From positions 1 through 10,980 of the forward strand of contig JBEQLE010000104.1 of assembly GCA_040326155.1 (NCBI GenBank): a stretch of DNA of 10,980 nt, given 5' to 3'. This DNA comes from Leptospirales bacterium (GTDB lineage: Bacteria; Spirochaetota; Leptospiria; Turneriellales; JAOUFE01). A program made the translations under genes and the position numbers. The number at the start of each line of letters is the position of its first letter. The first letter of the stretch is position 1. Shown here one piece after another: positions 1 to 10,980 of the stretch. The notes under the pieces were generated by a model. It did no database searches. It saw only the letters and a program-made list of their open reading frames with translations, and was not told the DNA's origin.

Positions 1-282
1 CAGACGCACAGCCGCCCCCTTCACCCCGCCACCCCCTGCCAGGGCAAGGTTGTAAATGTCCAGGATAGTGCCGCGCGTCATGTCCCGCGCCATGAAAGGA
101 GCGTGGACCAAATCCCAGAAGGTACCCTGATCACTACGGATCTGGTTATATATGGACCCTGCATCCCCCTGGGTCTGCTCATTGGCCGGCTCGGAAAGGG
201 AAAGGAAACTCTGGATCTCGTCCACCCCTACGACTCCCTCATCACTCTCAAAAAGAGCTCCCTGTAAAACGGTGACAAGCTG
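1..282 (-). pseudogene. 3' portion of a probable sigma54-dependent (NtrC/Fis-like) transcriptional activator, 5'-truncated and running off the window edge
   Basis: Hand translation of the open frame from 282 to 1: QLVTVLQGALFESDEGVVGVDEIQSFLSLSEPANEQTQGDAGSIYNQIRSDQGTFWDLVHAPFMARDMTRGTILDIYNLALAGGGGVKGAAVRL. The start resembles the helix that follows WPGNVR in bEBP AAA+ domains. FWDLVHAPFMARDMTR...ALAGGGGVKGAAVRL resembles a Fis-like HTH tail. There is an in-frame stop at 306-304 and no start codon between it and the apparent coding sequence. GC is 58% (162/280 counted). Confidence 0.55.
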
Positions 283-582
283 AAAAGAGAAATTATTCCA
301 AATTTAGTTGAGACAACAACAAGAATTGGTAGCAGAATAGGGAAAAGTAGAAGGTGTGAAAGGTTGTTCGGTTTTATATACCGCGTTTCCTGAATTAAAC
401 ATTTATATGGTTCCTTTTGTTATTATGTGATATCTTATTAAATTACAAAGCTATTGTCTATAAAAAAGAAGGATTTGGAAAAAAAATAAAAAAAAACCGT
501 CTACGGGCCTTTTGTGGCTCTTTTCCAGGGTAAAAATCGCGAACGTACTTGACGAACGAAGAAAAGAAGCCCTTTATGACAT

Positions 583-1143
583 ATGAATGGGAATCTGATT
601 GGAAATACTGTCCGCACTATATTATTTTTTATTTTATTATCAACAGCTGCAAATGCAGAGTATGTCGAACGGCCGTATTCGTCTGACGTCAAAGGAAAAA
701 CCCGGTTAGGAATTGTGTATTTCGCCAACGGTTCCTACGAGATTTCTGGAGCAGAACAGACGAGGGTGAAAAAAATTGCCCATATGCTGGAAATTTATCA
801 CAATTACGACAATTCCAGGCGCATTAAAATAGTCGGTTACGCTGACAACGAGGGCGGGTCCGACTTTAACCTTCACCTGGGTCTTGCCAGAGCAGAACAG
901 CTTGCCCGAGCTTTAGACGATTATGGTATTGTCATGAAAAATGCCGTCATCGCCTCTTATGGCGAATCGAAAGATGGTTTCTCTGAAAAAAATTACCGTA
1001 GAGCGGAAGTCTGGTTAGAGCCCGACTCCTGGGGAATCTATGGCAGCAACACCGGTTTATCTATATTTTTTGGGATAGCGATTACTCTGCTGATCGGATT
1101 TTTCGTTTATTGGAAAGTTCAAACCGAAGAGAGTTCTCCCTAA
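583..1143 (+). CDS. OmpA/MotB C-terminal-like peptidoglycan-binding domain protein with signal peptide and C-terminal transmembrane helix
   Basis: Signal-like segment ILFFILLSTAANA|EY; OmpA_C motifs VYFANGS, IVGYAD..G...FNLHLGLARA, YGES, YRRAEV; hydrophobic tail GLSIFFGIAITLLIGFFVYWK. Confidence 0.85.
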   Translation: MNGNLIGNTVRTILFFILLSTAANAEYVERPYSSDVKGKTRLGIVYFANGSYEISGAEQTRVKKIAHMLEIYHNYDNSRRIKIVGYADNEGGSDFNLHLGLARAEQLARALDDYGIVMKNAVIASYGESKDGFSEKNYRRAEVWLEPDSWGIYGSNTGLSIFFGIAITLLIGFFVYWKVQTEESSP

Positions 1144-1145
1144 GT

Positions 1146-1297
1146 TCCAGAATTGTATGGGTGTAAAACCCATTGAAGTTATAGGGAAGAAAATAAGAAA
1201 AGTCAGGGCTGAAACTACCGATCATTAAAGCGGATAAAATAAATGGTTTTTTATTGAAGGGAATAATGGCGGCGGCGTGACTAATAGTGAAGGGCAT
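1146..1297 (-). pseudogene. Truncated DUF4184-like membrane protein (N-terminal ~50 aa only)
   Basis: MPFTISHAAAIIPF...LSALMIGSFSPDFSYFLP...FYTHTIL matches the MPFTxSHxAA...SALxIGSxxPDxxYF...HT pattern I recall for this family. The frame then runs into the antisense strand of the OmpA gene and stops at 1082. Its start is 12 nt downstream of the beta-helix gene stop. The left boundary is approximate. Confidence 0.8.
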
Positions 1298-1309
1298 ATT
1301 TTATGGGTT

Positions 1310-1945
1310 TTATTTAAAATTGTTATTTCGCATAACAACATATTTTTCCAATTGTTCTTTAGTGAGGTCGGTGTCTATTGCTTTCGGGTTATTTACAATG
1401 TGGTTGTTCTCAATAATAATTCCATCAATAATGCCGCGCAATGCAACACCCGCAACAGTGTTATGATGCAGATAAGAACCCACGATTCTAACATTAGACG
1501 AATAGCCAATATCTACCCCGAGGGTGCCTGAACCGTTAAGTTCTGAATTAATGATTTCTATATCATGAGAATAAAAGACGGCAATAACTCCGCCACTGCA
1601 TTTGCCACCGGGTTGGCGCGGTATGGCATGTCGGGCTTTTATATTTTTTACGCTGATATTGTCTGATTCATAAATAAAGAAAACAACATCATGCATATCG
1701 TTTAAAATAAATTCTGTGCCATCTTCGCCGACTATTTTTAAATTTTTTTTATTCCGTATACTGATTGAGGTTTTTGTAATATATTTACCAGCGGTAAAGT
1801 GTATAGTATCGCCGGCTTCCGCTTTTTTTATAATGGAGTTTATTTGCTCCGTCTGGTCAGGATTAATAGAAATTATTTTTCCGGAAGGGGCAAGAGTCAT
1901 TAAGAACGGTAAAAAAGCAAAAGTTGCATATATTGTTATTTTCAT
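1310..1945 (-). CDS. Secreted right-handed parallel beta-helix (pectin-lyase-like) repeat protein
   Basis: N-terminal hydrophobic signal, then INSIIKKAEAGDTIHFTAGKY cap, KNLKIVGE, and repeated rungs (SDNISVKNI, SHDIEIINS, SSNVRIVGS, GIIIENNHI). A GAAAGG SD-like sequence lies upstream of the ATG. Confidence 0.85.
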   Translation of the reverse strand: MKITIYATFAFLPFLMTLAPSGKIISINPDQTEQINSIIKKAEAGDTIHFTAGKYITKTSISIRNKKNLKIVGEDGTEFILNDMHDVVFFIYESDNISVKNIKARHAIPRQPGGKCSGGVIAVFYSHDIEIINSELNGSGTLGVDIGYSSNVRIVGSYLHHNTVAGVALRGIIDGIIIENNHIVNNPKAIDTDLTKEQLEKYVVMRNNNFK

Positions 1946-1979
1946 TTATTAACCTTTCATTTTAGATGATTTAATACTT

Positions 1980-4409
1980 TTAATATTCATATGTTTTCGC
2001 ATAATATTCCAGTAATTTTCGTATTTTTGCATCTTGAATATATTTTAGTTTTTGTACGCCCCACCATGTAATAGTCCTGGGGTTTGCCCCTTTCTCAAGT
2101 AAGTATTTCAGTAAGGTAAAATTACCTCTGCCAATGGCCGTACCCACACCGTTATTTTCAATAAAGTAATTATAGTAATATTTATCATCTAAAACAAAGG
2201 ACACTGCGCCGGGGTGGTAACCTTTTTCGATTAAATATTTCGCTTCTTCTTCATACCCCTTTTGAAACAGAGCGGCGACAATGCTTCTGTTAATATCAAG
2301 GTTCATAGTGCCAATTAACGACTTCATAATTTCCGGAGCCGCTTCATGAGTTCTGGCAAACCCTAAAATTTTCCAGTGAACTGAATATTTTTCCAGGTAC
2401 TGTTTTAGCCCTTCGGTATTGTTTGTTTGTATGAATTCAAATATTTTCAGATCTTTCGGGTCGGCCCCCGCCGCCAGAAGTTTATTTACAATAACCGTTT
2501 GCCGGTTTAGATATGCTCTCATAAGAGCGGTTAGTCCGAAGTTGTCTCTCTGGTTCGGGTCTGAACCTTTGGCTATCATGGTGTCTACTGTAAAAGTAAA
2601 ACCGTATTCGGCAGCCAGCATAAGTAGACTGACCCCGTTTTTATATTTTAAATTTGGTTTTATTTTTATATAAGAATTTTCGAATACTTCATAGAAAACT
2701 TTTATAAACTTAAGGCTACTGTATGGAGACCTGATCTCCCTCTCCTTTTTTTCTTTAATACATATATGAAAAACGCTCTCGCCGTTTTTGTTTAGAATAC
2801 TGGCATCGGCTCCATACTCCAACAATGCTTTTACCATTTCCGGACCATGATCCCAGGTGACATAAGTGGTAGCATGCATTAATGGTGTATAACCTCTATC
2901 ATCTTGCCCGTTTATATTATAACCAAGATCGAGAAGTTTTTTCAGCTTCTTTTTAGAACCATACCGGGCTAATGAATAGAACAGACTGGAACCATAAGGA
3001 CCTTTTTCCTTAAAATAGGGCTTTAAAACATGGTAATCTTCGGGAGAGCAAAATTCTACAACAGAACCGAAAACATACTTCATGTTGTTTTGATTGCCAT
3101 CACCATTAGTATTTTTCATGAGTTGCTGTAATAGTTTTATACGCTTATTAGAATCGGTTATGGAACAAATATAAGTGGCGTACATTATATTTTGTGGTTC
3201 TGGCGGCACTTTAATCTCACTGTAAAAGAGATCTTTTATATTGTAATTACTTTTATTCATCAAAAGAGAAAATTTTTCTATATCTATTTTTCCCATGTTT
3301 TTCTTTACATAGGTATAATCTTTTTTCCAAAGAGCCTCGACTATATGTAAATATTCATCATCCAGGGTTATTTTTGCACCAGCCTTCAAAAATTTTTCAC
3401 TCAGGTTATGCTCTTTTCTCATTGTAACCGAAAGATCGTATGCGGTGAATCCATCTTTATCACGATGATTCAGATTATTTGCATTGTCTATTACATATAA
3501 CGCCATTTTATAGACCGAGTCAGAAAACCTGCGGTTAATAACATCGATCATTTTATGTAAAAGGGAGTCACCGTCGGGATAAACCTGGTTAATATTGCCG
3601 CCATATTTTAACAGCAACAGAAAAATTCGATAGTGTTTATCTGTTTTTTCTTCGTCAGATAATTTAGACGAGGAATGAGCATACGCAGAGTGGATTGAAA
3701 AAGAGATGGTGTCTCTACCGTTTTTATTTATATATGCTGGGTCTGTTCCGTTTTCAAGCAGTATTTTTATTATTTCTTCATTATTGATACTAACCGCAAG
3801 CATAAGTGCGGTACTACCACTTTTATTTTTTGCTTTAACATTCGCTTTTTTACTTATAAGGTATTTGGTGAGTATTGGATTATTTTTTACTGCGGCCATA
3901 AGAGGGGTAAACCCGGTTTTAGAGGCCTGGTTAATCTTTGCTCCGAACTCGAGCAGATATTTTACAACTTCGAAATTACCCTGGTCACTTGCTACAATAA
4001 GTGGGGTATAACCTTTCTTGCTCGCCTTGTTTACATCGGCTCCGTGTTTTATAAGATACCGAACTGTTTTTATACTACCAGCATAAGAAGCAATCAATAG
4101 AGCTGTTTCGTCCCTTTCATCGACCGCATTTACATCTGCACCGTTTTCGGTTAAATACCGTATAACATCGAATCCACCATAAACAACAGCTTTCATTAAA
4201 GGGGTCTCACCCTCAAATGCCGGGGTATCATCTCGTGTGTTTATATTTGCACCGTTTTTCAAACTATCTTGTATACCTGGCAGATAACCGTTCACAGAGT
4301 AATATAATAAATTTTTATTGGCTTCAGATAAGGGTTTGGAATATAGATTCAAAGTGAAAACTAAATGGATGAAGAGTGTAGTAATGAAAAAAATTCTTTT
4401 GGATGGCAT
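1980..4409 (-). CDS. Secreted ankyrin-repeat protein (about 14-15 canonical and degenerate repeats in several clusters)
   Basis: Repeated TPL/TAL...A...G...L..LL..GAD/N.N units (ETPLMKA, ETALLIA, YTPLIVA, FTPLMAA, STALMLA, YTPLMHA, VSLLMLA, LTALMRA). Signal-like N-terminus MPSKRIFFITTLFIHLVFTLNLYS. Confidence 0.95.
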   Translation of the reverse strand: MPSKRIFFITTLFIHLVFTLNLYSKPLSEANKNLLYYSVNGYLPGIQDSLKNGANINTRDDTPAFEGETPLMKAVVYGGFDVIRYLTENGADVNAVDERDETALLIASYAGSIKTVRYLIKHGADVNKASKKGYTPLIVASDQGNFEVVKYLLEFGAKINQASKTGFTPLMAAVKNNPILTKYLISKKANVKAKNKSGSTALMLAVSINNEEIIKILLENGTDPAYINKNGRDTISFSIHSAYAHSSSKLSDEEKTDKHYRIFLLLLKYGGNINQVYPDGDSLLHKMIDVINRRFSDSVYKMALYVIDNANNLNHRDKDGFTAYDLSVTMRKEHNLSEKFLKAGAKITLDDEYLHIVEALWKKDYTYVKKNMGKIDIEKFSLLMNKSNYNIKDLFYSEIKVPPEPQNIMYATYICSITDSNKRIKLLQQLMKNTNGDGNQNNMKYVFGSVVEFCSPEDYHVLKPYFKEKGPYGSSLFYSLARYGSKKKLKKLLDLGYNINGQDDRGYTPLMHATTYVTWDHGPEMVKALLEYGADASILNKNGESVFHICIKEKKEREIRSPYSSLKFIKVFYEVFENSYIKIKPNLKYKNGVSLLMLAAEYGFTFTVDTMIAKGSDPNQRDNFGLTALMRAYLNRQTVIVNKLLAAGADPKDLKIFEFIQTNNTEGLKQYLEKYSVHWKILGFARTHEAAPEIMKSLIGTMNLDINRSIVAALFQKGYEEEAKYLIEKGYHPGAVSFVLDDKYYYNYFIENNGVGTAIGRGNFTLLKYLLEKGANPRTITWWGVQKLKYIQDAKIRKLLEYYAKTYEY

Positions 4410-4452
4410 ACTTTTAATATCGGTTTAAATCGGTATTTACTGAAAGTGGGGG

Positions 4453-4557
4453 TTGTAGGTTAATACGTCGGGGTTAGCGGCGGCTCTTTTCTGATCGGTC
4501 GCAGAATTGCGATTGGTCAGAAAAAGCCAGAGTGAAGGGGTAGGCTTACCCCTACAA
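4453..4557. repeat. GC-rich multi-hairpin intergenic element (REP/REPIN-like or structured RNA)
   Basis: 21-bp stem at 4482-4528 (1 bulge, 3 G-U pairs on the + strand, GAAT loop); perfect 7-bp stem AGGGGTA/TACCCCT at 4536-4553; outer inverted repeat TTGTAGG (4453-4459) / CCTACAA (4551-4557). Confidence 0.6.
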
Positions 4558-4609
4558 AATTTTGCTATTCATTTTTATGAACAGGGTTTTCCTTTTAACC
4601 GATTTTTAA

Positions 4610-4897
4610 TTTGAAAGAAAATACCCGGATGTTTATGGCGATTTGAGAGATTATTCAGAAAAACATAAGAAAGTTAAACGTTTTCTGGACAATAAAATCA
4701 GAGAATATAAACACAGTAAAAACTTTAGTCACATTTTATTTCCCCACCTGATAGACAAACTACCGGGAAAGTATTCCCTGGCTATATACGATGCTGATAA
4801 AGAAGACGACGTAACTCATATTACAACGTTTAATTTTATAATTATAAACGAAAAACCAGTCTGCCCTCAAATCTGGTTAAGCCATAAAAAGTTATAG
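4610..4897 (+). pseudogene. Hypothetical protein, probably a 5'-truncated fragment (ORF track starts it at TTG 4643)
   Basis: The frame is open from 4610 (FERKYPDVYGDLRDYSEK...) right after a TAA at 4607-4609. The only start is a TTG with no clear SD. No recognisable domain. Confidence 0.4.
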
Positions 4898-4957
4898 CAA
4901 TGCTAACAAAACATATTTGCGATTAAACATGAGGGAAGAATAAAAATTTAAAATATT

Positions 4958-4990
4958 GGTGTCGGAAATTTACATAATATTTCCTACACC
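4958..4990. terminator. Inverted repeat between convergent gene ends, possible bidirectional terminator
   Basis: GGTGTCGGAAAT...ATTTCCTACACC (11/12 paired), immediately after the TAG at 4993-4991 of the minus-strand PP2C-like fragment. No strong U-tract. Confidence 0.45.
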
Positions 4991-5152
4991 CTAGTCAATG
5001 GCAATGATACTGAATGTGATATCATCTTCGAGTTGCTCAGCATTCGCCGAATAACCTTCAATAAATTTTGTTAAGTATGCACCGAGCTCATCACAATCCA
5101 GATGTACGTTTTCTTTTAACAATGAATATAGACCAGTAGCAGAAGAAAACAA
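4991..5152 (-). pseudogene. C-terminal remnant of a SpoIIE/RsbU-type PP2C phosphatase domain
   Basis: Hand translation: LFSSATGLYSLLKENVHLDCDELGAYLTKFIEGYSANAEQLEDDITFSIIAID*. Two helices followed by the terminal DDIT+hydrophobic strand typical of SpoIIE domains. The upstream catalytic motifs (DVSGHG, TDG) are absent. Below the ORF-track length cutoff. Confidence 0.7.
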
Positions 5153-5159
5153 ATTGAAA

Positions 5160-8100
5160 CTATTTTATATCTTCAAAAGTTTTTACCTGATTTCGGCCCG
5201 CGTGTTTGGCCAGATAAAGAGCTTTATCAGCCATTTCTATCAATATTGCCGGAGAATTTTTTGCAGTGGCTCTGATTGTTCCCACACCCGCACTAACTGT
5301 TATTACATCGGAAATTTCAGAATAGACATGATTTAGACTGAGACTTTCAATATACAGCTGAATCTCTTCGGCTATCATCAAAGCTGATTCTTTAGTAGTG
5401 GTTGGCAAGATTACTACAAATTCTTCTCCACCATATCTGGCGGCTATATCTGTTGGTCGTTTTAACTTAGCAAGTATTGCAGTTGCAACTTTTTTTATAC
5501 AATCATCACCCTTTTGATGCCCGAACCCGTCATTGTATTTTTTAAAATAATCGATATCTATCATGATCAATGATAACGGGCTGTTCTCGCGAATGGCATT
5601 TTTCCATTCTACTTTCATAAAGTCATCAAATTGTCTCCTGTTCACCAGACCGGTAAGTCCATCTATTGCTGCAAGGCGTTCGAGTATTCGGTTTGCATCG
5701 ACATTTTTTTGAAGTGCAATTTGTAACTTTCCTTTCTCTTCTTCAATTATTGTTGTTCTTTCAAAAACTTTTTTTTCTAACGTTTCATACTGCTTTGCAT
5801 TATCGAGGGATATTGCAACTTGCGCTGAAATCATATCCAATAATTCCATTCGATGTTCTGTAAATACACCTGTACTGAGATTATTTTCCAGATACATAAG
5901 TCCTACTGTCTTCCCCTGCCGCCGAACTGGCATACACAATATGGACTTTATGTTATTACTTAAAATATAAGGATCCTTTCCAAATCGTGAATCGCCTATA
6001 GCATTCATTAACAAAACCGGTTCCATTGTTCGTGCCACATATTTCACTACCTGAATTGGAACATTTAAACTTTTTTCGATAGGCACACCCTGAAATGTTA
6101 AAAAATTTTCATCATTGAAAGAACCTTCTGCTTGTTGAATCAGTTGATCTTGCTCATTTGTTATAAATACCCCTTTTTCAGCTCCAGCATTTTCAATGGC
6201 CAATAATATTAATTTCGAAGTTAAACGGTGTAAATCAATTTCGCTGGAAATATTCTGTGAAACCTTTAACACTGTTTTTAAATCAATATTTTGCGTAGAA
6301 TGCATTGTCGACATCTCGTGGCTGTCTGAGAACTCGGTTGAATCAAAAGAGCGCCGTGATAGATTATTGGGAAATTCGTTTTCTAGTTCGCTTACTTTTG
6401 ATAGTGCACCCCAATTATAGTATAGATTGCAACTTTCCTTAAGGTATGCGACGGCTAGAAAATTTTTATCAAGGCTGAAATAAAGGTCAGCTAATAGTTC
6501 ATTTGCAATAGCCTGTTCTAAGGTAAATTTATATGTAGATGCTGATGATATTGCCTTTTCATAAAATTTGATCGCATCTGTTCTTTTCTGCAATTGGGCA
6601 ATTTCAGCCTCAACGATTAAATACTTATGTTCATAATTCATAGGGGCATTCTTGGCCCAGGTTTTCATTTTTTTCTGGTTTGATATTGCGATACCTATAT
6701 ATTTTTTACGGTTTGACCCTGAAGATTGTTTTGCTAGAGCCGTAGCAATAAGCGAATAAAAAAAGTTATGTTCTGGTATCACTGGCATGCCAAATACACC
6801 AGTGGCATGAGGAACTGCTTTTTCTATATGCCCAAGAGCTTTTGCATTATCTCTTTTTAAAAAATATAAGATAGCCTTCATTAAATGAAAGATAAATAAA
6901 TCAGTATCATTATTGATTTTTTGCCATATTTTTACACTGACATCTTCGTCAAAATAATCGCCTTTTATTTTTTTTGAAATTTTATTATTTTCAGACAACG
7001 TTATAATAAATTGCATCCATAGATTATAAAACACTTGAGCATCTTCTTGGTTTATTCTTTCATGAACCCCCCTGTGCTTCGTCATTTCGTCCAATGTCTC
7101 GGGAATATTTTTACGAGTGAAGTAATTATACGCGTTTAACCAATTTAACGAGTACCCTGTAAAAAGAAGATCACCGGTTTCTAGTCCTTTTGTGTAAGCC
7201 TTTTCTAGAATTTCCTGTCCTTCGCTAAAAGAATGTTTCCAGTGGTGAATCAGATTGCCGACGCAGAATAACACCTTGCAATCGACCGGTCCAGAGGGTA
7301 TAGCGGATAATGTTTGCACGGCAAGTTTTGCAAGCTTATCGGACTTTTCGTGTTTACCCATACCGGAACCTAAAATCGCCCCAAAAAAAGCGAAAGCATA
7401 TGCCGACTGATTTGATAACCCATATTTGAGTGTTAAATGAACCATCTTTAAAACAAGAACCGGGAATAATTTAGGAGAAGAGATAAATGATGGTGTCACT
7501 AGTTGTATCATTACATTCATAGCAGCCAGTTTTTCCTTATCTTTCATACGAGGTAATTCAATTAAACGCCCGATGTTACCACCCATTTTAACGTTAGCAG
7601 TAATAATATCCAGAAGTGGCGAAAGTTCTGTTGGTTTTTTGGGTAATCTCACGCCAAGCTCAAGCAACGCCGAATACCCACTGGCGATGGCCTCGTTAAA
7701 TTTACTTTGCCGTGTCAAACTAGCGATTATAATTTCGAAAGCTTTGCCTTTATCGATTATCGAATGCGCTTGTTTCAAAATATCCTTACATAATTTTCCT
7801 GCATTTAAAAAATTAACATTAATATATTCGCATTCTGCCATTTCGGTGTAAAGCTGTAGTGTAAGAAAATATTCCTTTTTCCAGGAGTTTTTTGGTAATA
7901 ATTTATGAGCAACATTTAGGTATTCTAAAGCCGACCCAAAGGCAGCGCTTTGACGTGCCTTTTTCGCTGCTAACACATTAAGTATGATGATCACAAAAGT
8001 ATTTTTCTTGCCTTTAATCTCATCATAGCCTTTATTAAAATGATTCACAATAGAAAATATACTTGCATCCATCCAGTCCAACAATGCCTGCATACTGCTT

Positions 8101-10334
8101 TCATCTTTTACATAAACAGCGATTGAAGCTAGGTCTGTAATTGATTTGTCTGCGGTAAGTCGCTTACTACCATCATATATTTTGGGCAAACGCTCGATGG
8201 ATAGTCTTCCGATTTCGAGATGAATTTCTTTTTTCAGATCCGGGGCTATCATTGAGTAAACAGTATCTAAGATCTGATCATGCTGAAATTTAAAATACAT
8301 ATTATTGGACTCACTAGTTTTATCATTGATTGAAAGAATCAACTCTTCATGTATAGCCTCAATAAGATCAGCACGAACTACACCTAGTGGATTTTTGTCG
8401 ATAGAAGAAAGCATTTCCAAGTCAAAATGGTTACCTATGCAGCTGGCTAATTGTAGAACCTCAGTAGTCCTGGGTAAAACACTTTCAATTTTAGATGTCA
8501 TCAACTGTATGACATTATCGGTAAAACCGAACTTCTTAATTTTATCAATGCTCCAAACCCATTGAGTTTGCTCGTGGTCGTACTTAACAAGACTCTCATG
8601 ATGAATGGCGGTTAAGAACTGATTGACAAAAAATGGATTGCCGGCGGTTTGCATGAAGATTAATTTTGCCAATTTCGTGGCTTCTTGTTTTTCACAATTT
8701 AATGTGTCGTATATTAATTCCGAAATGGCTTTTTGATCAATTGCTGATAATGCTATAAATTCAATTGGTATATCAAGCTCAAGAAAATTAATATTCTCTT
8801 GTCTGAACTCTCTAATGTTATTTATTGTATTGGTAAGTAGTATGTTCTCTTGTTTTTCTGATTCACGATAAGAACCGATGAACAGAATGTGTTTTAATGC
8901 ACTGTTTGTCATTAAAACCTCAATGAGCTTTAAAGAAGAAGAGTCGGCCCATTGAAGATCGTCAATAAATATAACAAGGGGTTTATCTTTGGTCGCAAAC
9001 ACGGCAACAAAACGCAGGAAAACCCTATGAAAAATAGTTTGCAAATCCAGTGAATTGGGTTGTGTTGAATCGGTCCGTTTACCAATAATAAACTCAAGTC
9101 TGGGTATCATATTAATAATAACCTGGGCATTTTCACCGAGCGCATCCAGGATTTTCTCTTTCCACTGAGCAATGTGTTCAGTGTTGTTGATTAATATTTG
9201 ATTAACCAGGTCGTTAAAAGCCTTAATAAAGGCGTTATATGGTATTCTTGTTGTGTATTTTTCGAATTTTCCCGAAATAAATAGGCTATTGTCATAAATG
9301 ACTGGTTTGTACAACTCTTGAATAAGTACTGTTTTACCAATACCCGGTTCACCGGATACCATAACCAATTCAGTGGTCCTCTTCGAGGCTCTCTCATAGG
9401 CATCTTTCAATACCTTTAGTTCCTTATCTCGCCCGTAAACTTTTTGAGGTATTTGAAACTTTTCAGAAAAGTCTTTTCTGCCCGGAACGAATTTGTCATT
9501 CTCACCTGACTTTGTCAGGTATTTTAAAGAATGTTGTAAGTCAGATATTATACCGTCCGTAGTTTTATACCTATCTTCTGCATTTTTTGAAAGAAGTTTT
9601 AGTATTATCTGCGAAATATATTCAGGAATTTCCGGATGCAGGCTTGTGAGATTTTCGGGGCGTTTAGCCAGATGCGCGTGTATTATTTCAAGTGGATCTT
9701 GGGAAATAAACGGCGGAGCTTTATGCAGCATTTCATAAAGAGTCACACCTAAGGAATAATAATCTGTACGATAATCAACTAAACGGTTCATCCACCCTGT
9801 TTGTTCAGGAGACACATAAGTCAGCGACCCTTCAACCTGACTTAATATTCGTTTTTGCTCACTTTCTTTGGGAAAAAAAGATGATATATTAAAGTCCACG
9901 ATCTTTATTTTATTATCTTTAATATTGACAATAATATTTGCCGGTTTTATATCTTTATGAATAATATTATTTTGGTGGATTTTGCCAAGTCCATTTATAA
10001 TCTTAATCGCAATATCGATGAATAATTCAATGGAAAAATCTTGAGAGCTAATCATACTTTTAAGAGATTGCCCTGGAGCATCTTCTAATACGAGCATAGC
10101 TTTATTATTAAATTTATGGATCCCATAAGAATGCACAACTTCGTCAATGTCCAGTGATTGAATAATCTCCAGTTCTCTTTGTAAACGGCTGAAATCTTGT
10201 TCTGTTGGGTATTCTGACGCCAAAATTTTCAATATTACTGAACGATTGTCTTTTATTCGAATGGCCCGATAAACGAATGTTTTTTGGCTTTTCTGTACCT
10301 CTTTCCCTATCGTATACCCAGGTATATCAAGCAT
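5160..10334 (-). CDS. Multidomain signalling protein: Ser/Thr kinase + STAND/AAA ATPase + helical (TPR-like) region + GAF + coiled coil + GGDEF diguanylate cyclase
   Basis: Kinase motifs VILK, HKDIKPAN, DFN, YVSPEQTG, DYYSLG; Walker A GEPGIGKT (9353-9330); Walker B VIFIDDLQWAD; GNPFF; GAF region (VSQNISSEIDL...SILCMPV...YLENN...F); DGLTGLVNRR, DIDYFK, NDGFGHQKGD, RYGGEEF (GGEEF at 5432-5418), ADKALYLAKHAGRN. Confidence 0.95.
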   Translation of the reverse strand: MLDIPGYTIGKEVQKSQKTFVYRAIRIKDNRSVILKILASEYPTEQDFSRLQRELEIIQSLDIDEVVHSYGIHKFNNKAMLVLEDAPGQSLKSMISSQDFSIELFIDIAIKIINGLGKIHQNNIIHKDIKPANIIVNIKDNKIKIVDFNISSFFPKESEQKRILSQVEGSLTYVSPEQTGWMNRLVDYRTDYYSLGVTLYEMLHKAPPFISQDPLEIIHAHLAKRPENLTSLHPEIPEYISQIILKLLSKNAEDRYKTTDGIISDLQHSLKYLTKSGENDKFVPGRKDFSEKFQIPQKVYGRDKELKVLKDAYERASKRTTELVMVSGEPGIGKTVLIQELYKPVIYDNSLFISGKFEKYTTRIPYNAFIKAFNDLVNQILINNTEHIAQWKEKILDALGENAQVIINMIPRLEFIIGKRTDSTQPNSLDLQTIFHRVFLRFVAVFATKDKPLVIFIDDLQWADSSSLKLIEVLMTNSALKHILFIGSYRESEKQENILLTNTINNIREFRQENINFLELDIPIEFIALSAIDQKAISELIYDTLNCEKQEATKLAKLIFMQTAGNPFFVNQFLTAIHHESLVKYDHEQTQWVWSIDKIKKFGFTDNVIQLMTSKIESVLPRTTEVLQLASCIGNHFDLEMLSSIDKNPLGVVRADLIEAIHEELILSINDKTSESNNMYFKFQHDQILDTVYSMIAPDLKKEIHLEIGRLSIERLPKIYDGSKRLTADKSITDLASIAVYVKDESSMQALLDWMDASIFSIVNHFNKGYDEIKGKKNTFVIIILNVLAAKKARQSAAFGSALEYLNVAHKLLPKNSWKKEYFLTLQLYTEMAECEYINVNFLNAGKLCKDILKQAHSIIDKGKAFEIIIASLTRQSKFNEAIASGYSALLELGVRLPKKPTELSPLLDIITANVKMGGNIGRLIELPRMKDKEKLAAMNVMIQLVTPSFISSPKLFPVLVLKMVHLTLKYGLSNQSAYAFAFFGAILGSGMGKHEKSDKLAKLAVQTLSAIPSGPVDCKVLFCVGNLIHHWKHSFSEGQEILEKAYTKGLETGDLLFTGYSLNWLNAYNYFTRKNIPETLDEMTKHRGVHERINQEDAQVFYNLWMQFIITLSENNKISKKIKGDYFDEDVSVKIWQKINNDTDLFIFHLMKAILYFLKRDNAKALGHIEKAVPHATGVFGMPVIPEHNFFYSLIATALAKQSSGSNRKKYIGIAISNQKKMKTWAKNAPMNYEHKYLIVEAEIAQLQKRTDAIKFYEKAISSASTYKFTLEQAIANELLADLYFSLDKNFLAVAYLKESCNLYYNWGALSKVSELENEFPNNLSRRSFDSTEFSDSHEMSTMHSTQNIDLKTVLKVSQNISSEIDLHRLTSKLILLAIENAGAEKGVFITNEQDQLIQQAEGSFNDENFLTFQGVPIEKSLNVPIQVVKYVARTMEPVLLMNAIGDSRFGKDPYILSNNIKSILCMPVRRQGKTVGLMYLENNLSTGVFTEHRMELLDMISAQVAISLDNAKQYETLEKKVFERTTIIEEEKGKLQIALQKNVDANRILERLAAIDGLTGLVNRRQFDDFMKVEWKNAIRENSPLSLIMIDIDYFKKYNDGFGHQKGDDCIKKVATAILAKLKRPTDIAARYGGEEFVVILPTTTKESALMIAEEIQLYIESLSLNHVYSEISDVITVSAGVGTIRATAKNSPAILIEMADKALYLAKHAGRNQVKTFEDIK

Positions 10335-10347
10335 ACTTTTTATTAAA

Positions 10348-10353
10348 TCCTTT
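10348..10353 (-). promoter_or_regulatory. Possible Shine-Dalgarno site of the kinase-GGDEF gene
   Basis: AAAGGA on the minus strand, 13 nt upstream of the ATG at 10334. The spacing is long. Confidence 0.35.
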
Positions 10354-10442
10354 CATATAATTCTTCAAAATTTTTACAATTCAGACTTTAATATGCGGCA
10401 ATCCTATCCCCAATAATAGCTTTAAAATCAAATATCTAAAAT

Positions 10443-10470
10443 TGCTTGAGTTTTACAAGCAGAATATTCT
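10443..10470. promoter_or_regulatory. Palindromic candidate operator upstream of the kinase-GGDEF gene
   Basis: TGCTTG-N7-CAAGCA (10443-10461) overlapping by one base the palindrome AGAATATTCT (10461-10470), about 110 nt upstream of the start codon. Confidence 0.3.
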
Positions 10471-10498
10471 TTTCTGTAAACAATCGTAAAATTTTTAA

Positions 10499-10705
10499 TT
10501 TCTGTACAAAGTAATCAATACTTATCAAATATTTTTAGATTGGTTAATATTGGCACGTGGTCAGGTGTATGTGATCGAAGAAGATAATATAATCAATACA
10601 TTAAATGAAGAGCACATTCAATTCTTAGAGAAAATTGTAAAATTAAGCAAAGAAAAACAATCTCGCTATCTAAAGGCTTTTAACGAATCACTCATCGACG
10701 ACTAG
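10499..10705 (+). pseudogene. 5'-truncated XRE/Cro-CI-type HTH regulator remnant
   Basis: 68 open codons after a TAA: FLYKVINTYQIFLDWLILARGQVYVIEEDNIINTLNEEHIQFLEKIVKLSKEKQSRYLKAFNESLIDD*. FL..V...YQIxLDWLILxRG resembles the end of XRE domains (vsLDWLl.G.G), followed by the usual short helical tail. The HTH helices and the start codon are missing. Confidence 0.65.
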
Positions 10706-10855
10706 GAAGTTCTCCATTGAGCGGTTGCGGAATGTGTAGATTTTAGCCGATGTTTTCAAACTGCATGATGATGCACGTTTTCCCTTCCTCTTTTTGTTTT
10801 GCTAATATTAAATAGTTATTTTGGTAACGCACATCGCATAACGAAATTAATCTGC

Positions 10856-10880
10856 AAAGGCGCGCCCTGCACGCGCCCCC
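10856..10880 (-). terminator. GC hairpin after the minus-strand gene entering from the right edge
   Basis: GGCGCG-7nt-CGCGCC (10859-10877), extendable by 3 G-U pairs on the minus strand, 6 nt after the TAG at 10889-10887. Short U-tract. Confidence 0.45.
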
Positions 10881-10886
10881 ACCAAA

Positions 10887-10979
10887 CTACTTAATTATAG
10901 TTCTAATCAACTTCGCATTCTTCGTATCAACTCGGCCAAAGAAAACACAATCCTTACATTTCGTTTTATCCCGGCACTT
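10887..10979 (-). CDS. C-terminal end of a Cys-containing protein continuing beyond the window
   Basis: Open frame from the edge: KCRDKTKCKDCVFFGRVDTKNAKLIRTIIK*, with C-x5-C-x2-C, followed by a hairpin. Only 30 aa are visible. Confidence 0.4.
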   Translation of the reverse strand, partial: KCRDKTKCKDCVFFGRVDTKNAKLIRTIIK

Positions 10980-10980
10980 C

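Follow-up and report, generated by a model that had tools for sequence, protein, structure and literature searches.

Deletion by RecA-independent slippage works between short direct repeats. Among the closest described counterparts of the locus analysed here is pseudogene erosion under bacterial deletional bias, in which, in the accessible portions of two studies (Kuo and Ochman 2010, PMC2916853; PMC6054270), non-functional genes are lost by deletion, as they probably are here. Within the portion available, the second of these counts 171 pseudogene deletions with microhomologies out of 396, most of the genomes being without Ku; there as here microhomology is found at about 40% of deletion sites, and Ku was likewise not found in the genome assembly that carries our locus. 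The size analysis in the accessible part of this literature covers indels up to 15 nt, whereas the events considered here span 60 nt to 6 kb and have left an unusual density of remnants within a single 11-kb stretch. Ku-independent deletion between short direct repeats also occurs by alternative end joining (A-EJ) in E. coli (Chayot et al. 2010, as summarized in PMC6054270); A-EJ and slippage cannot be told apart by sequence, from which alone the present case is read. A different process, the SPDIR microindels of Acinetobacter baylyi, produces a microhomology-guided patchwork like the one seen here, but, in the part of the source available, its patches are of ectopic origin and RecA suppresses it, whereas our locus holds mostly resident genes in a genome with intact recA (10.1101/2023.11.22.568220).

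The stretch analysed, hereafter the window, is a whole contig (C5, 10,980 nt) of the genome assembly G000. Its gene stumps are, with a probability of about 0.78, leftovers of repeated deletions in a dispensable chromosome stretch of an uncultured bacterium, that is, of ordinary erosion. The window contains the following features:

1–282, minus strand: GAF/sigma-54 enhancer-binding protein, a C-terminal fragment starting at residue 801 (of 924), recognized by its homologues and running off the contig end
283–582: AT-rich stretch upstream of the OmpA gene, defined by composition, unassigned
583–1143, plus strand: intact OmpA-domain gene, 186 aa (Pfam OmpA)
1146–1297, minus strand: first 49–51 codons of a DUF4184 gene (Pfam/homology) that closes a run of three genes in one orientation and is short of about 200 codons
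1310–1945, minus strand: intact gene for a right-handed beta-helix protein, 211 aa (domain scan; paralogues on C150 and C153)
1980–4409, minus strand: gene for an ankyrin-repeat protein, 809 aa, open from start to stop (ORF and domain scan)
4461–4560: remnant from one of this genome's families of dispersed palindromic repeats (REP/MITE-like), 72–78% identical over about 95 nt to copies on C131, C160 and C98
4570–4621, plus strand: leader-like sequence, 83% like the DNA that precedes a gene start on C40 and sharing about 12 nt with the beginning of the fragment that follows
4610–4768, plus strand: residues 285–337 of a 447-aa uncharacterized protein, 72–73% to P0074
4760–4897, plus strand: C-terminal part of that 447-aa protein (residues 404–440 aligned), 68–69% to P0074
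4991–5146, minus strand: C-terminal end of a SpoIIE/PP2C domain gene, 56% to a native paralogue on C84
5160–10334, minus strand: intact Ser/Thr kinase-AAA-GAF-GGDEF gene, 1724 aa (domain scan; paralogues on C127, C110 and C84)
10335–10474, minus strand: upstream region of the kinase gene, through which the local alignment to the C110 paralogue runs
10493–10705, plus strand: XRE regulator reduced to its C-terminal half, without the HTH (DNA homology to full-length paralogues)
10746–10813, minus strand: 3′ end of a PAS-domain gene, 84% to C68 and 79% to C137
10834–10880, minus strand: GC hairpin followed by sequence like the right end of the genome's attC-like repeats, left arm absent (12.1 bits, E 0.61)
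10887–10980, minus strand: 3′ part of a four-cysteine 78-aa gene (21 matches in G000), which lies opposite XRE in intact modules

Gene fragments are therefore present in the window, and homology bore out all five proposed in an earlier note on this DNA, which had overlooked a sixth, the PAS 3′ end. The GC steps that it described were reproduced (57.8, 28.0, 43.6 and then about 36%), as was its remark that intact genes end near breaks, the OmpA stop (1143) lying about 3 nt and the kinase stop (5160) 14–26 nt away. Its junctions needed revision: the one near 500 has no evidence in composition or homology, the one at 4610 is a zone (4610–4621), and two had been missed, at 4760–4768 inside a fragment and near 10815–10830, beyond the PAS 3′ end. 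Each of the seven annotated window proteins is recorded from this single contig alone, a DNA search of 40 related genomes gave only short matches of 64–89%, inside the kinase gene, and neither an Rfam search of the window nor plasmid searches with two fragments gave a match. The 45 predicted promoter sites, against 38.5 ± 5.2 in shuffles, are uninformative.

Deletion is favoured over capture by a collinear two-part fragment, a host-like composition, an excess of microhomology and the absence of a junction motif. The two-part fragment, at 4610–4897, consists of collinear portions of one 447-aa gene, intact and longer in P0074, joined in frame at a repeated Leu-Pro-Gly tripeptide. About 69 codons are deleted between them at 4760–4768, and both P0074 and P0075 contain the intervening segment. 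These two homologues polarize the event and point to loss, not gain, at that junction only; it is also the one window junction for which both parents are known, at the protein level. No usable family for 4610–4894 was found in the Atlas.

The DUF4184 fragment corresponds to the first 49 of 252 residues of P0015 (82%). Searches for the stump in 300 genomes of the phylum gave two marginal matches only, and no full-length DUF4184 was found in viral contigs. The neighbouring OmpA gene has a homologue of equal protein length and 84% identity (P0077) and a single match in each of the three family relatives searched, and appears to be native to the family. The OmpA homologue (84%), the full-length DUF4184 protein (82%) and P0089, a close mate of the Gp49 toxin on C90, each lie on a contig of 16,987 bp, presumably one and the same in view of its identical length. 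The window would thus be syntenic, on indirect evidence, with a relative that probably keeps DUF4184 whole. The earlier note had held that synteny of all segments in close relatives, with simple internal deletions, would mean ordinary pseudogene erosion, and the contig link points indirectly that way. At its right end the window overlaps C90 exactly over 77 nt, at the end of C90 that bears the toxin gene; C64 overlaps the identical C90 end, so this join is not unique. The toxin copy in G000 is more 5′-truncated than its mate on the 16,987-bp contig.

Several other pieces have resident counterparts. The SpoIIE domain of the C84 paralogue of the PP2C fragment was confirmed by Pfam, the region upstream of the kinase gene matches C110 at 162 of 250 aligned bases over 10216–10474, and homology of the XRE fragment to three full-length paralogues, all HTH_3 proteins, starts at 10492–10494.

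Among 26 collinear deletions found genome-wide, 11 carry at least 5 nt of exact microhomology, against 0.8% expected at random; this is a figure for the genome and is not specific to the window. The 26 were kept from 40 candidates (14 were dropped for poor fit) and include five without microhomology, two copies of one junction and one that is probably a repeat insertion, the direction not being fixed for all. Early junction harvests, swamped by repeat families, were excluded from the counts, and the 80 candidate truncations are uncurated and include natural domain ends. No shared motif was found among the 26 genome junctions or those of the window, nor a shared repeat of the kind expected of site-specific or CRISPR-like capture: the best 4/5-mer among the 26 (p ~0.001 before correction for several hundred words) occurs at none of eight window junctions. 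A TTTC/TGAAA motif, picked out by eye and proposed after the fact, present at four and two of the eight window junctions, failed on the 26 others, where it occurs at two and none.

How events followed one another, what selection did and by which enzymatic route the deletions arose we infer as follows. A variable region would first have acquired long blocks carrying genes and mobile modules; a series of later deletions, each between tens and thousands of bases long, would have removed most of the dispensable DNA. Many of these may have formed between short direct microhomologies, by replication slippage or Ku-independent end joining. Deletions hitting useful genes would have been purged, the surviving OmpA and kinase-GGDEF genes each ending near a break; dispensable genes would persist as 5′ or 3′ stumps, and convergent pairs as tail-to-tail ends. 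Missing repair genes were considered as a cause and rejected for the genes tested, since recA, recQ, mutS1 and xseA pass the cut-offs in G000; a recJ-like gene falls narrowly short of its own, as it does in all four relatives.

The headline proposal of the earlier note, serial capture of foreign DNA by an unrecognized mechanism, found no support, in contrast to its second option, a deletion-eroded island. Capture of short foreign pieces, by SPDIR-like or transformation-linked illegitimate recombination or by an unknown site-specific system, would account for the terminal piece at 1–282, which is foreign, unameliorated and cut mid-gene, and for the missing parts of three genes, which are not in the assembly; SPDIR, in the part of its description available, also predicts microhomology (10.1101/2023.11.22.568220). 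However, Markov scores place 13 of the 14 segments within the range of the host genome, leaving one foreign by composition where ectopic patches would be expected, and the kinase, beta-helix, PP2C, XRE and PAS genes have paralogues in it. With an internal deletion in one fragment, a whole DUF4184 in the probable syntenic relative, no motif shared among junctions and four repair genes that pass their cut-offs, capture is quite improbable. The evidence favours broken genes that are real and due to ordinary genome wear, with no new route for taking up foreign DNA. So read, the locus matters little beyond being a clear example of accessory DNA decay, with the caution that a mosaic of broken genes and GC steps may mimic a capture system.

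The segment at 1–282 is the sole compositionally foreign piece of the window and the only one of the 14 with a Markov score below the genome's range. Its GC3 is 0.65, and none of 2438 long ORFs of the genome exceeds 0.62. It has 14 homologues of 581–941 aa (best 78% identical), contains no stop codon and shows no amelioration, the closest homologue fetched having a GC3 of 0.66. Homology ends sharply at 282, where homologues read PGNIR|QLV and the window NNFSF|QLV. The remainder of the activator gene was not found in the assembly (94.7% complete), no repeat was found at the left contig end, and 283–582 has no significant homologue anywhere in the genome. The GC step is the largest among 296 contig ends. 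C107 holds a fragment of about 60% GC in its interior, with neither end at a contig border, which speaks for the erosion reading. That these 282 bp are a misjoin is possible but doubtful, and only for them does the artefact option of the earlier note survive. An assembly or amplification chimera of the whole window is very improbable. The window does begin at a contig end with that GC step, and 198 of 342 contig ends lie off repeats, which suggests coverage gaps. Yet the exact 77-nt overlaps between contig ends indicate a k=77 graph, which cannot join on few bases without reads holding the join. In the accessible part of PMC1855051, more than 85% of MDA chimeras are inversions, against no local near-identical inverted duplications in G000, where junction sites are 44 direct and 6 inverted. 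Moreover, the missing gene parts were not found elsewhere in the 94.7% complete assembly, and this set of genes seems to be present on an independent contig as well. The earlier preference for real evolution over random ligation holds for the interior junctions.

Deletions could also come in bursts, a single event of discontinuous copying or fragment rejoining removing several stretches of a newly arrived molecule and outrunning point mutations. The end of C99 carries five collinear pieces of an IS110 that is intact on C100, separated by four deletions (117, 128, 564 and 60 nt, with exact overlaps of 10, 8, 3 and 2 nt), with one substitution in 244 nt. Gaps between ORFs of at least 400 bp number 6.7–8.0 per 100 kb in G000 and 4.2–5.0 in samples of three relatives, but ORF cover is only slightly below that of relatives (0.87–0.89 versus 0.89–0.91). 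The IS110 copy is the one clear case, lies at the end of a contig other than the window, and there is no candidate enzyme: G000 yielded no IEE-type AEP-TOTE domain, no Ku and only two RT matches. We regard bursts as unlikely. If the deletion-to-substitution ratio of this IS110 held genome-wide, it would point to an unrecognized way of disarming mobile DNA in a bacterium in which the repair genes tested look normal.

The earlier note saw no transposase, integrase or attC site. No tyrosine recombinase, serine recombinase or RT was found on the window contig (four tyrosine recombinases are found elsewhere in G000), and none of the 11 window ORFs scanned matched a transposase. Traces of mobile elements do occur in the window: the repeat remnant, the 21-copy element gene and the weak attC-like half-site (10834–10870), the last with an E of 0.61 and no match in a shuffled genome. 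Attc-like repeats form a family in the genome, which also encodes a Phage_int_SAM_4-domain integrase, a likeness to integrons and CALINs to which the window adds this one right half, no attC-like repeat being found in it by repeat search. Integrons differ in that genes in the window lack att boundaries, lie in either orientation and include some broken off internally; neither an integrase beside an array nor a complete attC between genes was found.

The four-cysteine gene has 21 matches in G000 and two in G003, whereas 32 further genomes from the order gave none, and the Atlas offered no usable family for its protein. Both G003 copies adjoin a large serine recombinase, and the gene thus appears to be a marker of integrative elements, as in decayed integrative elements and in defence or TA islands. 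No cognate integrase was found in G000 (94.7% complete), where PF07508 and PF00239 had no match. It is conceivable, if improbable, that burst-like, microhomology-guided multiple deletion, needing neither Ku nor IEE, shreds incoming DNA in single events, as the four deletions per substitution of the one IS110 copy would suggest, and that XRE/four-cysteine modules with the att-like half-site serve as integrase-less landing pads through which fresh cargo continues to enter such regions. A homologue of the four-cysteine gene heads an element-like operon in a Desulfobacterales MAG. G000 has about 21 occurrences of the XRE/four-cysteine module, set among accessory genes that include TA and eCIS-core genes, and the four-cysteine/XRE junction itself recurs in three diverged copies.

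Comparison with homologues and paralogues confirmed the five gene fragments described by the earlier note and largely upheld its observation, although a junction that it placed near position 500 is without support and further pieces had been missed (marked "new" below).

Fragments and other pieces of the window
1-282: C-terminal part of a GAF/sigma-54 activator; homology breaks sharply at 282
1146-1297: DUF4184 fragment, 49 of 252 residues
4461-4560: repeat remnant (new)
4570-4621: leader-like piece (new)
4610-4897: remnant of a 447-aa protein, by homologue match
4991 to about 5146: end of a SpoIIE domain, by match to a native paralogue
10493-10705: half of an XRE gene, without the HTH
10746-10813: 3' end of a PAS gene (new)
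10834-10870: weak attC-like half-site (new)
Right end of the window, minus strand: four-cysteine gene, multi-copy (new)

The repeat remnant is of a REP/MITE-like kind. The product of 4610-4897 aligns to its homologue P0074 as residues 286-337 and 404-440, the two parts being joined in frame with Leu-Pro-Gly at both ends. An intervening segment is also present in a second homologue, and about 69 codons have therefore been lost besides the first 285; given two losses from one gene, it would most simply have once stood whole at this site. P0074, P0075, P0080 and locus L049 form an uncharacterised family of ~450 aa, whose members start like a signal peptide and show, by eye, an HExxH-like motif; a Pfam search of P0074 and P0075 gave no match. 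The best homologues of the OmpA protein (84% identical, equal in length) and of the DUF4184 protein (82%, full length) are each recorded on a contig of 16,987 bp, as is a 90% cluster mate of the Gp49 toxin encoded at the right end of contig C90, from which we infer that a close relative probably carries a less eroded version of the locus. That end of C90 is overlapped by the window (77 nt) and by C64, and its toxin copy is more truncated than the cluster mate.

Composition was assessed with an order-4 Markov model built on the genome outside the window, comparing 14 window segments with 400 random windows. Only segment 1-282 scored below all 400, and its GC3 of 0.65 compares with none of 2438 long ORFs exceeding 0.62; the other 13 segments lie at the 7th to 97th percentile. 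Paralogues of the kinase, beta-helix, PP2C, XRE and PAS pieces exist in the genome, and three family relatives each hold a single match to OmpA. Together these results argue that the patchwork is mostly resident-type DNA, and with 13 of the 14 segments in the host range the serial capture of foreign pieces, one of the options raised earlier, is not supported. The steps to 28% and 25% GC are non-coding AT-rich stretches upstream of genes.

A survey of low-copy duplicated DNA against longer paralogues yielded 40 candidate collinear deletions in the genome, 26 of which (60-5877 nt) passed a fit filter. Exact microhomology of at least 5 nt occurs at 11 of the 26, against 0.8% for random breakpoints, or at 9/24 if a duplicated junction and a probable repeat insertion are left out; longer overlaps have a slight advantage in the scoring, and not every event has a fixed direction. 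Five deletions have no microhomology. The share is close to the 39-43% given for bacterial pseudogene deletions in PMC6054270, where the threshold is lower (1-2 nt) and the deletions are smaller. Bacterial deletional bias is the subject of PMC2916853, and microhomology-guided SPDIR that of 10.1101/2023.11.22.568220. No word shared among the genome-wide junctions survives correction. The genome contains recA, recQ, mutS1 and xseA, and the score of its recJ-like gene is like that in relatives; searches for Ku and IEE found neither. Slippage can delete DNA between short direct repeats, and Ku-independent end joining was reportedly described by Chayot in 2010.

The internal deletion, resident composition and microhomology excess favour the deletion-eroded island among the options originally proposed: the window is probably an ordinary deletion-eroded accessory region. 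Gene blocks and mobile modules, judging from the paralogues, would build up in a variable region, and dispensable DNA would be removed by deletions between short direct repeats, as documented genome-wide and at one window junction. Cutting may proceed by slippage or end joining, which look alike in sequence. Selection would spare useful genes, leaving breaks near their ends, and the stumps and tail-to-tail pairs that are seen would be what is left behind.

MDA chimeras are mostly inversions, according to PMC1855051; direct sites outnumber inverted ones by 44 to 6 in this genome, which shows no local near-identical inverted duplications. The lost parts of the window genes were sought elsewhere in the assembly and not found. 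A misjoin of the left 282 bp is a minority prospect, though a substantial one: this piece makes the largest GC step among 296 contig ends and shows no amelioration, but an interior fragment of C107 (31152-31406; ~60% GC, matching part of a C77 gene, 1884-2783, at 85% identity) demonstrates that high-GC pieces do occur inside contigs.

The genome (4.26 Mb, 171 contigs, 39.6% GC, 94.7% complete, 1.7% contaminated) includes the window as an entire contig, and a search for others of its genus returned none. Contig ends overlap exactly by 77 nt, which suggests de Bruijn assembly with k=77. Repeats are abundant, both dispersed and attC-like, as are IS110 and pieces of group II introns. ORF cover is 0.87-0.89; three relatives, each sampled over 0.28-0.40 Mb, have 0.89-0.91, and gaps of at least 400 bp are 1.3 to 1.9 times as common as in these samples; the genome is more worn than its relatives, yet not extreme.

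Matches to the four-cysteine gene number 21 in this genome, 2 in the related genome G003 and 0 in 32 others of the order. Intact copies on C29, C77, C3 and C140 each face an XRE gene, and the neighbours of the module copies are accessory genes, TA and eCIS-core ones among them. At its right end the window would hold two same-orientation modules collapsed by deletion; the same four-cysteine/XRE junction is found in three diverged copies, a pattern not expected from assembly error. Both G003 copies adjoin a large serine recombinase, from which the gene (78-80 aa) runs away (L035, C17; L037, C70), so that a directionality factor or regulator might be guessed at; in a member of the Desulfobacterales, a homologue is the first gene of an element-like operon. 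A search of the window's genome found no serine recombinase.

Several four-cysteine copies (C90:41752, C29:935, C3:8775, C3:9777 and window 10834-10890) are followed by a GC hairpin, then by sequence resembling the right end of attC-like repeats, and beyond it by different DNA in each copy. These sites are possibly attI-like landing sites; two of them score weakly against the attC-like profile (E 0.13 and 0.61), and the others gave no match. At L023 (C90:37600-45661) and L024 (C14), tandem XRE/four-cysteine modules alternate with eCIS-core (DUF4157) genes, short downstream genes and TA pairs, many of them truncated. At C3:9551-9777 a TIR-like gene and a four-cysteine copy are fused in frame across an imperfect microhomology of ~17 nt.

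An IS110 copy at the end of C99 (42891-43134) retains five stretches, all in order, of the intact element on C100 (34524-35636; L127). It differs from that element by four deletions (117, 128, 564 and 60 nt) and, over 244 nt, by a single substitution; it starts within an attC-like repeat. If this one case, outside the window, were typical, deletions would come in bursts. The 601-bp contig C68 (1-601) is itself a patchwork, in which the end of a PAS gene is combined with deleted pieces of a group II intron RT, and a 7-kb Rhs-like gene family (L020, C147; L021, C2; L022, C25) is accompanied by many orphan C-terminal tip fragments.
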